DNA of 64,000 nt from an uncultured Acidobacteriota bacterium. Its GTDB lineage: Bacteria; Acidobacteriota; Thermoanaerobaculia; Gp7-AA8. Shown here piece by piece: positions 1,406 to 63,193 of the stretch; position 1 is the stretch's first letter; every line of letters begins with the position of its first letter. The stretch is taken from contig CAVWUH010000002.1 of NCBI GenBank assembly GCA_963758195.1, forward strand, positions 715,618-779,617. The letters are read 5' to 3'. Under the pieces are notes generated by a model, which ran no database searches, was not told the origin of the DNA, and saw only the letters and a list, made by a program, of their open reading frames with translations. The position numbers were made by a program, and so were the translations under genes.

Positions 1406-1481
1406 CGGTTGCTGATTACTAGTTGCTGGTTGCTTGCGGTGTACCCCAGATAACCGACAACCAGAAACCAGCAACCAATTC
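1406..1481. repeat. Heptamer-repeat hairpin H1 (ttgctgg-type arms), a bidirectional terminator-like element between convergent genes
   Basis: Left arm cggttgctgattactagttgctggttgcttgcggtg; right arm cagataaccgacaaccagaaaccagcaacc. The right arm is an imperfect reverse complement of the left. Confidence 0.7.
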
Positions 1482-1686
1482 AGATCAGCACGGCCATCTC
1501 TTCGCGCCGTGCGAGCGACTCCCGTTTCGGCCTACGCACGAGCTCGGTCGTGCAGTTCGGACATCGCGACTGGAACCATCGGGTACAGGTCGCGCAGAAC
1601 GTACATTCGAAACTGCAGATGTATGCAACTTCGTCGTCCGTGAGATGCGACTCGCAACGCTCACAACGCGGTTTCATGTCGAGCAT
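1480..1686 (-). CDS. DUF1272-like zinc-ribbon protein
   Basis: 68 aa with paired Cys motifs (CERCESH...CSFECTFCATC...CPNCTTEL) matching the DUF1272 pattern. Confidence 0.55.
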   Translation of the reverse strand: MLDMKPRCERCESHLTDDEVAYICSFECTFCATCTRWFQSRCPNCTTELVRRPKRESLARREEMAVLI

Positions 1687-1764
1687 GGGCTTCTGAAGAA
1701 TGAATACGCCTCAGACCTCGACAGGTTTGGGATTCGCCGCAAATGTAACAACTGGCGCAACTCG

Positions 1765-3024
1765 TCACTTCGTCAGGCGTTGGATCCGGCGCGCGAATAG
1801 TCCCACGATCGCAGCCGCCACGATCGTCACGAGTGCGTTGTAGAGAAAGAGCCGGTACGGCGGAACGACGTCGAAGAAACCCGCCACCCAGCCCGCCACC
1901 TTGTTCCCGAACGAGGCGCCGAGGAACCAGATCCCCATCATCAAACCGACCATCCGCACCGGCGCCAGCTTGGTGACCAGGCTCAGGCCGACGGGACTCA
2001 AACAGAGCTCGCCGAGCGTGTGAATGAGATAGAGCACCGCCAGCCACATCGGACTGACGCGCGTTCCCGTCTGCGCGGCCGCCGCCGCAGGCACGATCCA
2101 GAGAAATCCGGCGCCGACGAGCAGGAGCCCGAGGGCGAACTTCACGGGACTCGACGGTTGTCGCGGGCCAAGGCGGAGCCACATCCAGGCGAAGACCGGC
2201 GCTAGCACGAGCACGAACAACGGTTGCAGAACCTGGAACCAGCTCGATGGAAACGTCCATCCGAAGAGCGAGAGCCGCGTGTAGCGATCGGCGAAGAGCG
2301 TCAGGCTCGATCCCGACTGCTCGAACGCCCCGAAAAACAAAATCGCGCAGGCAAAGAGAATCAGGATGACGGCGATTCGCGCACCTTCGCCGGGACCTGT
2401 GTCGGCGGCGCCGGTCTCTGTCGTTTCGCGGGAGACGTTCCGTGGCAAGTGCCGCCGGCCCATCACGTATTGCGCGACTCCGAGAAGCATCCCCACGCCC
2501 GCGGCGCCGAAGCCGAGGTGCCAGTCGATGCGTTGACCAAGCCAGCCGCAGATGATCGGTGCAGCCATCGCACCGACATTGATTCCCATGTAGAAAATCG
2601 AAAACCCGCTGTCGCGCCGCGCATCGTCCGCGTCGTACAGCGATCCGACCATCGTGCTGACATTCGGTTTCAGAAGTCCGGTGCCGATGACGATCAATCC
2701 GAGCCCGGCGTAGAAAAGATCGACGCGCCCCAGCGCCATGCTGAAGTGACCGAGCGCGATGATGACCCCGCCCGCGAGCACCGCGCGATAGTGCCCGATG
2801 AGACGATCGGCGATGAACCCGCCCGGAATCGCCGCCGCATACACGAGCATCGTGTACCAGCCGTACACCGAGGCCGCGTGCGCCGTCGTGTACCCCAGCC
2901 CGCCAACCGCCGGCGCGGCGACGAGATAGAGAATGAGAATCGCCCGCATCCCGTAGTAGCTGAAGCGCTCCCACATCTCGGTGAAGAACAGCGTCGAGAG
3001 TCCGCGAGGGTGACCGAACCACAT
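1765..3024 (-). CDS. POT/PTR2-family proton-dependent di/tripeptide transporter
   Basis: Signature EMWERFSYYGMRAILILYL, the FYMGINVGA motif and multiple transmembrane helices. The long ORF runs upstream to 3168, but that extension translates repeat family 3. The start at MWFGHPRGL (3024) fits the family N-terminus. Confidence 0.85.
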   Translation of the reverse strand: MWFGHPRGLSTLFFTEMWERFSYYGMRAILILYLVAAPAVGGLGYTTAHAASVYGWYTMLVYAAAIPGGFIADRLIGHYRAVLAGGVIIALGHFSMALGRVDLFYAGLGLIVIGTGLLKPNVSTMVGSLYDADDARRDSGFSIFYMGINVGAMAAPIICGWLGQRIDWHLGFGAAGVGMLLGVAQYVMGRRHLPRNVSRETTETGAADTGPGEGARIAVILILFACAILFFGAFEQSGSSLTLFADRYTRLSLFGWTFPSSWFQVLQPLFVLVLAPVFAWMWLRLGPRQPSSPVKFALGLLLVGAGFLWIVPAAAAAQTGTRVSPMWLAVLYLIHTLGELCLSPVGLSLVTKLAPVRMVGLMMGIWFLGASFGNKVAGWVAGFFDVVPPYRLFLYNALVTIVAAAIVGLFARRIQRLTK

Positions 3025-3105
3025 GCCCGCACTCTGGAATGCGATCTCGCGAGCGAGGTCGTCAACGTCACGAGCGGCGGCATGAATGGAACGAACGGTC
3101 GAAAC

Positions 3106-60980: not shown

Positions 60981-61095
60981 GTCATCCCGAGCGTAGCGAG
61001 GGACCCGGGTGGGTGGGGGCGCGCAACACGATCTTGAATCACGAGTCGCGTGCCACACACCCACCCAGGTCCCTCGCTCGACGCTCGGGATGACA
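60980..61095. repeat. Family-4 palindrome, copy 3
   Basis: Lies between the treZ start and the glgB end. The arms match copies 1 and 2; the centre diverges. Confidence 0.8.
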
Positions 61096-61097
61096 GG

Positions 61098-63116
61098 CTA
61101 AGACGCCGCAAGTGCGGCCGCCGCCTCCTCCATCGCAACTTCCCTGCCGTCCTCGCTGACCATGAGGAACACCGCCGCGAGCGGCGGGAGCGTCAGCGTG
61201 ACCGACCACTTGCGGCCGTGCAGCGGAATCGGCACGGCATCGACGCCGCCCATGTTGCCCTGGCCGCTTCCGCCGTAGATCGTGGCGTCGCTGTTGAGGA
61301 TCTCCACCCAGTGACCGCCGCTCGGAACGCCGATCTGGTAGTTGTGGCGCGGGATCTCCGTGAAGTTGAGCGCGGCCACGAGCAGCGCGTCCGGCTTCGT
61401 TTTCGAACGGCGCAGCAGACTGAGGATGCTGTTCTCCGTGTCGCAGCAGTCGATCCACTCGAAGCCTTCCTGCGCCATGTCGAGCTCGTGGAACGCCGGC
61501 ACGTCGCGGTAGGCCTTGTTGAGATCTTCCAGCCAGCGCTGGATGCCGGCGTGCCGCGGTCTCTCGAGCAGATCCCAATCGAGCTGCGCGTCGTGATTCC
61601 ACTCGCGATATTGACCGAACTCGCCGCCCATGAAGATCAGCTTCTTCCCAGGATGCGCATACATGTGCGCGAAGAGCAGCCGCAGGTTCGCGAACTTTTG
61701 CCATTCGTCGCCGCGGCATCTTCCCGATCAGCGAACCCTTGCCGTGCACGACTTCATCGTGCGAGAGCGGCAGCACGAAGTTCTCGCGTGAAGGCGTACA
61801 TCATGCCGGAAGGTCAGGTCGTTGTGATGAAACTTGCGATGGATCGGTGTCGCGCGCGAAGTAGCGCAGCGTGTCGTGCATCCAGCCCATGTCCCACTTC
61901 ATGCCGAAGCCGAGTCCGCCGACGTACGTCGGTCGCGAGACCATCGGCCAGGCCGTCGATTCCTCGGCGATGACCTGCACGTCGGGATGCACTTTCGTAG
62001 ACGTCGTCGTTCACGCGCCGCAGAAAGGCGATGGCCTCGATGTTCTCGCGTCCGCCGAACTCGTTCGGCACCCACTCGCCGGCCTTGCGCGAGTAGTCGA
62101 GATAGAGCATCGACGCCACCGCGTCCACGCGCAGCCCGTCGATGTGGTATTCGTCGAGCCAGTAGAGCGCGCTCGAGAGCAGGAACGAACGGACCTCGTC
62201 GCGTCCGTAGTTGAAGATCAGCGAGTTCCAGTCGGGGTGGAAGCCCTGACGCGGATCGGCGTGCTCGAAGAGATGCGTGCCGTCGAAGTACGACGAGGCC
62301 GTGCTCGTCGCTCGGAAAATGCGACGGCACCCAGTCGAGGATGACGCCGATGCCGTTCTGGTGCAGGAAGTCGATGAAGTACATGAAATCCTGCGGCGTG
62401 CCGTAGCGGCTCGTCGGCGCGAAGTAGCCGGTGACCTGGTAGCCCCAGGAGCCGTAGAACGGATGCTCCATGATCGGCATCAGCTCGACGTGCGTGAAGT
62501 TCATCTTCTTCAGGTACTCGACGAGTGGCGCAGCGAGCTCGCGAAAGCTCATGAAGCGCCAGGTCGCGCCGCCGTCGTCGGAGATCCTTCGCCAGGAGCC
62601 AACGTGCAGCTCGTACGCGGAGATCGGCGCTTCGTAGCCGCTGCGCGCGGCGCGCGTGCTCATCCACTCGGCGTCGTTCCATTCGTAGTCGAGGTCCCAC
62701 ACGATCGACGCGGTCTGCGGCGAGAGCTCGTGGTGAACGCCGAACGGATCGCTCTTATCGACTTCGTAGTGGTTGTTGTAGCGCGAGACGATGTGGAACT
62801 TGTACTTCGCGCCCTTGCCGACGTCGGGGATGAATCCTTCCCAGATCCCGACGCCGGTGCGATCTTCGAGCGGATGCGCGTCGTTGTTCCAGCCGTTGAA
62901 GTCGCCGATGACGCTGACGCGGATCGCGTTCGGAGCCCAGACCGCGAAGCGAACGCCGCCCTCGACGTTGTGCGCGCCGAGTTTTTCCCACAGCTTGCGG
63001 TGAGTGCCTTCGGCGAAGAGGTGGAGGTCCCAGTCGGCGAAGCCGTATTCGTGCCGGCTGGAAGCCGGCGGACCGGCAGGCTGGAAGCCTGCGCTCCCTT
63101 CGTCTGCAACACTCAT
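61098..63116 (-). pseudogene. glgB: 1,4-alpha-glucan branching enzyme (GH13), with three or more frameshifts
   Basis: CBM48/N-terminal region ([21 protein letters not shown]), GH13 core ([28 protein letters not shown]), [15 protein letters not shown] in a second frame, and C-terminus ([14 protein letters not shown]...) in a third. The start is set at MSVADEG because the further upstream ORF translates repeats. Confidence 0.8.
63054..63097. repeat. Family-5 half copy, adjacent to a (ctgccta)n single-arm heptamer array at 63145-63176
   Basis: ccggctggaagccggcggaccggcaggctggaagcctgcgctcc is about 95% identical to the right arm of 34154-34260. Confidence 0.7.
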
Positions 63117-63193
63117 CGTCTCGGCGCTCGCCGGCGAAGCGCTCTCCTGCCTACTGCCTACTGCCAACTGCCTACTCGTCTCGGGTACCGCCA

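Follow-up and report, generated by a model that had tools for sequence, protein, structure and literature searches.

Hairpins built from tandem 7-8-nt units beside stop codons, in gene spacers and inside genes of an acidobacterial genome

The 64-kb stretch of DNA analysed here (the window) derives from a genome whose closest TrpF loci, at 80-82% identity, are found in metagenome-assembled genomes of Acidobacteriota/Thermoanaerobaculia. Homologues of the window proteins also carry the Thermoanaerobaculia label from their sources, and the genome is of a Thermoanaerobaculia-like, soil Acidobacteriota type. The window contains 17 loci at which tandem copies of a short unit are followed, after a loop, by tandem copies of its reverse complement, i.e. 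(unit)n-loop-(reverse-complement unit)n, together with three unpaired or non-complementary arrays (17355, 30608 and 63147; Table 1). Comparison with relatives revealed that the structure of these hairpins is inherited while their sequence is replaced in a concerted and compensated manner, even inside genes. We consider it an even bet (a probability of roughly 0.5) that these tandem-repeat palindromes, with stems of ~30 bp and ~4 head-to-tail units of 7-9 nt per arm, are made and kept by processes acting at the DNA level. It is such processes, each of which we infer from the sequences, rather than one shared function, that would unite the hairpins.

Excess over chance and position relative to genes

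Arrays were listed using Tandem Repeats Finder and a scan of our own, in which the 64-kb window was compared with 20 dinucleotide shuffles and a partner was defined as a reverse-complement array no more than 170 nt away, while the final list of loci was drawn up from sequence reading and folds (L numbers denote DNA loci of relatives and P numbers homologous proteins). The window holds 19 period-7 arrays against 0.5 expected from the shuffles, and 14 of the 19 possess a partner (none in the shuffles); period-8 arrays number four against 0.1, and all four are paired. A preliminary description of this DNA had named as refutation a genome-wide count no higher than in shuffled intergenic sequence; within the window the count clearly exceeds that of the dinucleotide shuffles. 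The same description had reported at least 18 loci of one design, with a 7-nt unit and a spacer of 5-60 nt. The loci are real and far above the shuffles, but the tally now stands at 17 paired loci plus the three unpaired or non-complementary arrays. Heptads are indeed common, yet six loci have period 8 (the others period 7), including one whose unit had been given as 'caggctcac' and is actually the 8-mer AGGCTCAC, and loops reach 140-173 nt where another palindromic element is nested inside (6659, 44280).

Tandem Repeats Finder returned dozens of period-7/8 arrays, with neighbours having reverse-complement consensus units (for example GGTTGCT/AACCAGC, AGATCGC/CTGCGAT and TCTCCGCG/ACGCGGAG). 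The arms are mostly ~20-37 nt in length (one exception measures 52 nt) and comprise ~4 units, forming a stem of ~30 bp, and the two arms usually differ by no more than one unit. Folding of 15 loci as single-stranded DNA gave z-scores of -3.1 to -9.2 relative to shuffles. When strong hairpins were identified irrespective of periodicity, 22 were found, of which 13-14 have tandem-periodic arms and the rest represent three other palindromic families. The AGATCGC family places GATC every 7 nt, as had been described for several arrays.

Concerning position, the upstream stop codon lies 0-8 nt before nine loci on the coding strand (1407, 9569, 10503, 14821, 18151, 41551, 44280, 47391 and the 17355 arrays) and inside the hairpin at four others (13362, 42989, 43713 and 59153); in total, 13 of the 15 intergenic paired loci, a count that takes in the 17355 arrays, have a stop codon inside the hairpin or no further than 8 nt from it, and the same is observed in the clean relatives L085 and L086. 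Several hairpins end 1-5 nt short of the next start codon and some spacers are nearly filled (41635 to ATG 41637; 43083 to ATG 43087; 13362 to the start at 13358). An array or hairpin is present at every junction of the MFP-ATPase-permease operon and at the junction with the sigma-54 activator-histidine kinase pair, the array pair at the ATPase-permease junction (17355) being non-complementary. The earlier assignment of these elements to 3' ends, to the space between convergent genes and to the MFP-ATPase-permease junctions is confirmed by these contexts. Hairpins also occupy divergent spacers, in the window (6659 and 29000), in L086 (7152) and upstream of GH57 in L081, L082 and L083.

As for the copies previously placed inside coding sequences, those at 21134 and 42603 do lie in genes, while the one at 40525 was rejected as such, being intergenic since the CN-hydrolase gene starts at ATG 40671 (ribosome-binding site AGGAG), a start that is the same in L048. 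The notion of a three-frame stop module, with a unit length that is not a multiple of 3 and a stop inside, is true for some arrays (1407, 42989) and not generally; stops in all three frames are present in (AGCTGAG)3 of 42989-43083 and, as TGA/TAG, in the 1407-1441 arm.

Unit turnover and proposed growth and copying of hairpins

The open reading frame (ORF) at 20418-21632 on the minus strand encodes a GlxA/AraC-type regulator, the corresponding gene of the source genome being 20418-21389. Alignment of this protein with PDB relatives pairs residues 83-112 with chain residues 12-41 and residues 166-308 with 65-208, leaving ~30 extra residues that coincide with the 21134 hairpin, whose in-frame translation is IARGSQLAAGRNDTASPAPGAGVLLRTANCEQQTGP (an insert of ~31 amino acids). 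In 104 of 120 homologues this loop is empty (of the LPDVDASAIVVVPG type), in three (P0129, P0131 and P0198) it is longer by 8 amino acids, and an extension of 28-32 amino acids is confined to the window protein and its 88-89% relatives. The DNA of P0131 (L087), the only case with 8 additional residues for which DNA was fetched, contains a single AGATCGC-like unit, and this graded series of 0, +8 and +30 amino acids suggests growth in place. The insert reads (GCTCGCR)4..(CTGCGAA)3-4 in the window and (GCTCGCA/GTTCGCA)4 with a decayed second arm in L085, and in L086 it constitutes a near-perfect (GATCGCR)4..(YTGCGAT)4 hairpin of -98 kcal/mol (144-nt segment folded). The second-arm units of the window have an A where pairing needs a G, resulting in one C.A mismatch per unit, while L086 possesses the perfect A-T version; homogenisation within an arm can, to judge from this insert, outrun pairing. 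In other lineages (P0139, P0153, P0159, P0183 and P0189) the same surface loop harbours inserts of a different palindromic type (EDRQSCLS..GRIACPP), so that hairpin elements have repeatedly landed or grown in this loop.

The second in-gene hairpin, at 42603, lies within ORF 42188-43069, which specifies a double-GNAT protein (one gene of 259-282 amino acids in clean assemblies), and encodes the linker between the motifs LQCW and WW..PSWQN. In six genomes, i.e. the window and five orthologues, this linker consists of exactly 4+4 8-mers with the same anchoring codons, built from the units GAGGCTCA (window and L082), GAGTCTCA (L083), GAGTCTCC/TGGTCTCC (L080), GAGTCGTC (L051) and CAGTCTCC (L053), and L081 has a linker of 18 amino acids with no tandem hairpin. 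In a set of 123 double-GNAT linkers, made up of those from 120 homologues and those of the window, L053 and L051, the length is 18-35 amino acids, except for two of 39 and 92, with modes at 18, 23 and 29-30 that match two, three and four units per arm in 16-nt steps, an agreement that is suggestive rather than formal. The linker of 92 amino acids (P0096) is composed of repeats of ~11 amino acids (33 nt; e.g. PRNSEELGGRG) and represents a different tandem expansion in the same linker.

RNAalifold analysis of the linker alignment of the window, L053 and L051 revealed compensatory change at 17 of 33 pairs. When the hairpin alone was considered in these three genomes, paired cells make up 85.6% and both sides have changed in 16 of the 30 pairs, which was matched by none of 500 shuffles (sliding the partner by 1-3 columns gives 0-2), though these counts are inflated, since one unit-level change is repeated in every copy, and measure concerted compensated change as opposed to 16 independent events. 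Where a single unit varies in L082 (GCACA/TGTGC) and L083 (GAGTCGCA/TGCGACTC), the opposite arm shows the matching variant.

The same behaviour is seen between genes. Downstream of the response-regulator gene, the window has a hairpin of AGATCGC 7-mers, L001 one of GTGGACNNN 9-mers and L002 one of TAGAGTCT 8-mers, and L050 and L053 have none. Upstream of GH57, the unit is GTTGCTG (period 7) in L082, GTTCCTCG in L081 and GTTGCTGG/GTTGCTGT (period 8) in L083, whose GTTGCTGG/T unit has an extra base that is paired in the other arm. Periods 7, 8 and 9 therefore all occur, sometimes at one site. The claim that the unit differs while the structure is conserved holds not only between loci, as first described, but also at one and the same orthologous site with both arms compensated, and the comparison of orthologous intergenic regions that had been proposed as a check shows the unit to drift while the architecture stays.

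Evidence of copying is provided by the GGTTGCT family: at both 6659 and 43713 arm 1 contains GGTTGTCTG as against GGTTATCTG in arm 2, the arm-2 form (GGTTATCTG) recurs at locus 1407, and the arm-1 form (GGTTGTCTG) is found in the solo arm at 30608. The site orthologous to this solo arm is occupied by a full hairpin in L086, an 88% relative with the same hairpin families as the window, in which three GGTTGCT-family members have a common GTTAAC outer flank. The spacer between the permease and aldehyde dehydrogenase genes contains a CTTCGCGT hairpin in the window versus a GGTTGCT hairpin in L086 (88% identical). The unit of locus 59153 is that of 10503 and 47391 with the arm order swapped, and a 14-nt duplication is private to arm 2 of 18151.

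Gain or loss is apparent at the GNAT/trpF junction, where stop and start overlap without any spacer in L053, L051 and L049 while the window has a 95-nt hairpin (42989) into which the GNAT ORF reads for 25 codons before stopping in arm 2. No target-site duplication is visible in this filled-versus-empty comparison, in which the relatives share only ~80% protein identity. The hairpin between trpF and the response-regulator gene (43713) is absent from the site in five relatives (L001, L002, L050, L051 and L053). Nesting is observed in the loops of 6659 and 44280, which hold other palindromic families, in the two layers of arrays at L048 9123-9294, and in L010, where a spacer of ~900 nt (12300-13210) is almost wholly made up of layered heptamer arrays (a further case being L010 15226-15309). 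Similar paired arrays were sighted incidentally in the Gemmatimonadota loci L017 and L040 and in the acidobacterial locus L010.

Origin and maintenance of the hairpins

In the explanation that we favour, replication slippage or conversion between neighbouring units would duplicate and homogenise units within an arm, while template switching inside the hairpin (quasipalindrome correction), selection for pairing or the two together would keep the arms complementary. Whole hairpins would now and then be copied to new sites, giving rise to the genome-specific families GGTTGCT, AGATCGC/CAGCTCG and CTCCGCGT. With identical units, the stem can shift its register one or more whole units at a time, so that gain or loss of a unit would never destroy it, and the design would be unusually robust. 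The hairpins may spread until they reach constrained sequence, and such constraint on the neighbouring sequence would explain why they start at stops and fill spacers, and why they survive in genes only at permissive in-frame spots. Transcribed copies must form very stable hairpins without a U tract that could block exonucleases, pause ribosomes or terminate transcription, likely as a side effect or by occasional co-option. The slippage-driven or templated origin put forward in the preliminary description remains the best fit to the evidence. Stems can arise by template switching and be repaired by it through compensatory changes of several bases at once (PMC8794818, PMC7202029). Template switching is a known selection-free route to perfect stems and to compensatory changes of the kind seen between the arms here; it is, however, a mutational mechanism rather than an element class, it is not known to be linked to tandem-unit stems, and its action in these genomes is deduced from the arms.

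Several points weigh against this explanation. Every step of the mechanism is derived from comparison of sequences, and the covariation that it invokes is inflated in the manner stated above. The constant-length 4+4 hairpin that has long been kept in a coding linker could equally reflect functional selection at the RNA or DNA level. Gain or loss of 7 or 8 nt inside a gene shifts the reading frame, so that homogenisation there needs length-neutral conversion, which is assumed. The preference for periods 7-8 and the mode of ~4 units are left unaccounted for, and the explanation offers no means of dispersal, no target duplication having been seen.

As the two strands of a palindrome are identical, strands can be told apart only by mismatches (and loops), and an argument from the same orientation relative to transcription was dropped on these grounds. 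The minus strand gives the stabler RNA fold at 14 of 18 window loci whatever the gene strand, which follows the A+C-rich plus strand (negative GC skew and positive AT skew over most of the window) and may represent a replication-strand mutation bias. Among nine in-gene hairpins across genomes the sense strand is stabler in four and the antisense strand in five, with differences of no more than 20 kcal/mol. The G.U-versus-A.C asymmetry was rejected as evidence for RNA function, as it tracks base skew in the window and is balanced in the in-gene cases. Strand-balanced folds of this kind give no sign of transcript-specific selection and favour strand-symmetric maintenance at the DNA level, with which RNA effects are compatible.

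Function at the RNA level is nevertheless the alternative to be taken most seriously, and we regard it as possible, if well short of probable, that the hairpins are U-less terminators, or exonuclease barriers or RNase III sites similar to repetitive extragenic palindromes (REP), which act at 3' ends to tune operon expression and whose arms are kept complementary by selection on RNA structure. Most copies start right at a stop codon between co-directional or convergent genes, compensatory change at orthologous sites is strong, the trpF-response-regulator hairpin sits between the trpF stop and a conserved sigma-54-like promoter, and most of the comparable arrays of Xanthomonas are transcribed (PMC4692102). 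Canonical U-tract terminators are not enriched in the window, a consensus scan finding 16 versus 12 +/- 3.2 in shuffles, which leaves room for such a role, and none of the 16 coincide with the hairpins. Termination, 3'-end protection or ribosome pausing by the 3'-end copies is plausible. The hairpins are not canonical intrinsic terminators (a GC-rich stem-loop followed by a U tract), there being no T run after any of them in the window, and no match to Rfam 15 at gathering score was obtained in the whole window. A terminator role cannot be the common denominator in view of the copies located upstream of both genes in the divergent spacers mentioned above and of the two window hairpins that are translated as parts of proteins. 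Moreover, where a hairpin ends 1-5 nt before the next start, no promoter could fit behind a terminator, close relatives lack the hairpin at the same site with nothing visibly taking its place, and no sense-strand preference for G.U is apparent from the folds (sense better in only four of the nine in-gene cases; minus strand at 14 of 18 window loci). On account of the divergent spacers, translated copies, filled spacers and strand counts, the U-less terminator suggested earlier does not hold as a general role.

A further proposal, which we rate as rather unlikely, is that the hairpins are non-autonomous mobile elements, akin to MITEs (miniature inverted-repeat transposable elements), REPINs or Rickettsia palindromic elements (RPEs), moved in trans by a hairpin-recognising transposase of the RAYT or IS200/IS605 type, with the arrays being secondary. 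It draws support from the families of the window and L086, in which inner-stem, flank and arm-asymmetry features are common to many loci, from the variable presence of hairpins between relatives and the different families occupying one spacer of 88%-identical relatives (CTTCGCGT in the window, GGTTGCT in L086), from the nesting of other palindromic families in hairpin loops, and from in-frame loop inserts, in a loop also struck by other palindromes, that recall RPEs (PMC10969869). Against this, no terminal inverted repeats distinct from the stem, target-site duplication or GTAG-type head was seen, and Pfam scans of ~50 window ORFs detected no Y1-type (RAYT/IS200) or other transposase family. 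The units at orthologous sites are related by descent, and the length of the element stays constant over long divergence, which indicates vertical inheritance with turnover in place and not repeated insertion, and the graded GlxA series also suggests in-place growth.

A bolder possibility, to which we give little credence, is that the hairpins of Acidobacteriota, Gemmatimonadota and Xanthomonas form a distinct, self-maintaining class of element, whose stems a dedicated activity builds and repairs in steps of 7-9 nt up to ~4 units. Such an activity could reside in a polymerase or nuclease with structure specificity, or in a protein able to read periodic stems. As part of the same tentative proposal, this activity would hold a hairpin of -50 to -98 kcal/mol in coding sequence over the long term while its sequence turns over.

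Less likely still, the hairpins would serve as double-stranded DNA sites at which a stem or cruciform with 7-8-bp periodicity is read by a protein, be it a nucleoid, gyrase or IHF-type organiser such as has been proposed for the BIMEs of E. coli, or a methylation-linked system acting on the GATC family. The strand symmetry of the features, the narrow range of stem lengths (~28-32 bp, four units), the recurrence of GATC every 7 nt in one family and the fact that three 7-bp units make 21 bp, or two turns of B-DNA by our own arithmetic, would suit such a site, while the lack of any candidate protein found and the coexistence of three periods, sometimes at one site, do not. As neither families nor orthologous sites have units in common, a protein could recognise nothing but the structure.

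Finally, the quality of the data requires consideration. The window seems rich in frameshifts, with the Pfam domains of GH77, GH57/DUF3536, MacB, aldehyde dehydrogenase and alpha-amylase/GlgB split across frames, which suggests indel errors of a long-read assembly or pseudogenes, and statements based on ORFs consequently require homology support. That the hairpins are themselves errors of a noisy long-read assembly, as these split domains might intimate and as the preliminary description had allowed, is refuted for practical purposes by a Logan assembly of run ERR11596053 (L084), in which a second assembler working from the raw reads returned a sequence 100% identical to window positions 20410-22888 (2,479 bp, the 21134 hairpin included), by numerous independent metagenome contigs of relatives, obtained from other sources and with intact gene calls, that show this architecture at orthologous sites, and by the fact that complementary arrays cannot arise from indel errors.

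Relation to known repeats and features of individual loci

The closest described counterparts are the GGGAATC arrays of Xanthomonas, of which there are 183-186 per genome, mostly of four units and 89-93% intergenic (Rehm 2015, PMC4692102). The mean distance of these arrays from the upstream ORF is 28 nt, and they strongly favour positions at or overlapping the stop codon; they form 70-75 convergent, stem-loop-capable two-array cases per genome, and vary in length and sequence between species while the site is kept (PMC4692102). The window hairpins resemble them in having tandem 7-nt units with a mode of ~4, in their mostly intergenic location near or overlapping the upstream stop of mostly co-directional genes, in the formation of stem-loops by convergent arrays, and in the retention of site and of single or paired type while the sequence varies. 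They differ in that Xanthomonas has one dominant G-rich unit, interpreted in terms of G-quadruplexes, whereas many unrelated units with periods 7-9 and no G tracts occur here; G3 tracts are absent from the window units (GGTTGCT, AGATCGC, CAGCTCG, CTCCGCGT, AGGCTCAC and others), which excludes the G-quadruplex subfamily and not the class. Further differences are that pairing is the rule in the window (14 of 19 period-7 arrays), that nesting occurs, that two copies are translated in frame, and that compensated unit turnover at orthologous sites, as shown here, is not reported for Xanthomonas. In L010, G-rich GGGACTC/GGGATTC units that are reminiscent of the Xanthomonas GGGAATC unit pair with GAATCCC some ~500 nt away.

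We place the window hairpins in the class of inverted heptamer arrays, of which they share every feature bar the G-tract unit, and the wording of the preliminary description that suggested an undescribed class is to be tempered, given that inverted heptamer arrays near stops are known in Xanthomonas (PMC4692102). The literature anticipates the finding only in part, and the class itself is mechanistically unexplained. In many bacteria, no other long simple repeats are as over-represented as heptamers. Over-representation of heptamers within prokaryotic repeats of 5-11 nt is attributed to Mrazek 2007 as cited in PMC4679880 and PMC4692102. The current data indicate that the paired-array hairpin is not tied to G-quadruplex units and occurs in soil phyla distant from Xanthomonas. 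A literature search for the tandem-unit hairpin design in Acidobacteria/Gemmatimonadetes, and in a 2026 paper on 3' stem-loops, retrieved nothing.

Dispersed intergenic tandem heptamers with lineage-specific units are likewise represented by the cyanobacterial STRR and the TAACTGA repeats of Beggiatoaceae (PMC4679880), although these arrays are mainly one-sided, TAACTGA lying just upstream of starts with one inverted case reported (PMC4679880), and the Coleofasciculus loci that we examined display weak pairing only. REP, BIME and REPIN elements (PMC3116915) are similar in being abundant extragenic palindromes whose families are genome-specific and which frequently lie within operons and at the 3' ends of genes, and REP elements can stabilise upstream mRNA (PMC3116915). 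However, a REP is one imperfect palindrome, 20-40 nt long, that possesses a conserved head, is linked to RAYT and lacks internal tandem units (PMC3116915), whereas the arms of the window hairpins consist of tandem units, their family alignments exhibit no GTAG-like common head, and no Y1-type transposase turned up among the ~50 ORFs scanned with Pfam in these 64 kb of a genome of ~5.08 Mb. The RPEs/MITEs (PMC10969869) share with the in-gene copies an in-frame palindrome at permissive surface or linker positions of proteins, but are fixed-sequence families of ~100-150 nt without tandem-unit arms (PMC10969869), in contrast to the vertical inheritance and unit turnover observed here.

Other types of repeat were considered and rejected. 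CRISPR arrays have direct repeats of 25-40 nt with unique spacers of similar length, while the units here are contiguous 7-8-mers in two mutually inverted arrays; the earlier exclusion of CRISPR, insertion sequences and classical REP is borne out. Integron attC sites are bounded by the outer core sites RYYYAAC ... GTTRRRY, and their cassettes lie in one orientation next to intI. The outer ends of the window elements read GTT..AAC, which is the opposite order, and the elements are situated between core genes, in divergent spacers and inside genes. Arrays of Chi-like or DNA-uptake sequences were contemplated in light of the resemblance of GCTGGTTG to the Chi site of E. coli, but the many unrelated units argue against them.

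The double-GNAT linker, with more than 100 orthologues, offers a natural test bed for establishing whether compensatory change in stems is brought about by selection or by template switching. From a practical perspective, such stems can break assemblies, inflate ORF calls and add spurious C-terminal tails, and tandem-repeat stems can mimic the covariation evidence used for functional RNAs. The L002 contig ends within a (TAGAGTCT)n..(AGACTCTG)n hairpin (4814-4910), and tandem-repeat hairpins probably do break short-read assemblies.

Table 1. Tandem-unit hairpins and arrays of the window, with the regions of broken reading frame
Feature	Coordinates	Strand	Context and remarks	z-score
(GGTTGCT)n..(AGCAACC)n hairpin, period 7	1407-1479		3 nt past methyltransferase stop (1401-1403), convergent with minus-strand POT transporter gene	-4.1
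GGTTGCT-family hairpin	6659-6886		Arms 6659-6686 and 6860-6886, loop of 173 nt with nested GGAGGGCGGGC..GCCCGCC palindrome; spacer of the divergent genes 6058-6612 (-) and 6943-7500 (+; ECF sigma factor)	
(GTTGGCG/A)4..(CGCCAAC)4 hairpin	9569-9685		Between two HEAT-repeat genes; upstream stop 9559-9561	-6.8
(CTCCGCGY) 8-mer hairpin	10503-10561		Stop 10494-10496 before, SDR gene start 10574 after	-5.9
(CGAGTCGC) 8-mer hairpin	13362-13445		Overlaps sigma-54 activator stop; histidine kinase start 13358 is 3 nt off; both genes (-)	
(GGTAGAC/GGTGACA) hairpin, period 7	14821-14896		1 nt past stop (14892-14894) of MacB-type permease gene (-)	-6.2
(ATCGCTG)3.9 and (TCAACCAG)2.4 arrays, non-complementary, weak hairpin	17355-17459		Between ABC ATPase and permease genes	
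(AGATCGC)5..(CTGCGWYC)4 hairpin	18151-18267		GATC every 7 nt; abuts/overlaps MFP (HlyD) stop, ends 21 nt before ABC ATPase start	-5.1
(GCTCGCR)4..(CTGCGAA)3-4 hairpin	21134-21234	-	In frame in DJ-1/PfpI domain of GlxA/AraC-type regulator	
(CTTCGCGK) 8-mer hairpin	29000-29061		Divergent spacer, amino-acid permease (-) / aldehyde dehydrogenase (+)	-8.7
Solo 5' arm of GGTTGCT family, (GGTTGCT)(GGTTGTC)3TGCGGTG	30608-30637	+	Directly after aldehyde dehydrogenase gene	
(GATCGCR)4..(YGCGATC)4 hairpin	40525-40623		Intergenic, 47 nt upstream of CN-hydrolase start	-4.7
GGTTGCT-family hairpin	41551-41635		Fills spacer from CN-hydrolase stop (41541-41543) to DinB start (41637)	-7.1
(AGGCTCAC)4..(GTGAGCCT)4 8-mer hairpin	42603-42682	+	Inter-domain linker of double-GNAT protein (ORF 42188-43069)	
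(CAGCTCG)4..(AGCTGAG)4 hairpin	42989-43083		Double-GNAT/trpF junction	
GGTTGCT-family hairpin	43713-43800		Overlaps trpF stop (43726-43728)	-5.9
(AGATCGC)4..(GCGATCT)7 hairpin	44280-44497		Begins 3 nt past response-regulator stop; nested perfect 32-nt inverted repeat (44330-44431)	
(CTCCGCGT) 8-mer hairpin	47391-47447		0-1 nt past BNR-repeat gene stop (47389-47391), upstream of GH57	-9.2
(ACGCGGAG)n..(CTCCGCGT)n hairpin	59153-59228		Overlaps stop (59195-59197) of upstream minus-strand gene	-5.5
Solo (CTGCCTA)4.3 array	63147-63176	+	Without reverse-complement partner	
Frame-broken regions	44500-51600, 14892-17337, 29022-30645, 59195-63194		Domains split between frames	

Three separate palindromic families were also noted in the window. 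The first, GTCATCCCGAGCG..GAGCGAGGGACCTGGG, is found at 20349-20419, 44330-44431 and 60995-61078, one copy being nested in the 44280 loop; the second, GGAGGGCGGGCTTA..AGCCCGCC, at 3107-3196, ~6720-6845 and 34136-34278, with one copy nested in the 6659 loop; and the third, of the CCAGCCGGCGAGACGCCGGCGGTCCA type, at 11999-12101, 30702-30802 and 51457-51521.

Concerning the genes around the response regulator, a sigma-54-like -24/-12 motif (TGGCGGGTTTCCTGCT) is present at 43846-43861, ending ~17 nt upstream of the response-regulator start (43878), and is kept in L001 and L002 (TGGCCGAATTCGTGCT and TGGCCGGGTTTGTGCT). Between two hairpins of different families, at 44500-47391, the window possesses a block of BNR/sortilin-repeat genes that is absent in all syntenic relatives examined: the response-regulator gene is followed directly by GH57 in L001, L050, L051, L053 and L080, and L048 and L049 have neither the response-regulator gene nor the BNR block.

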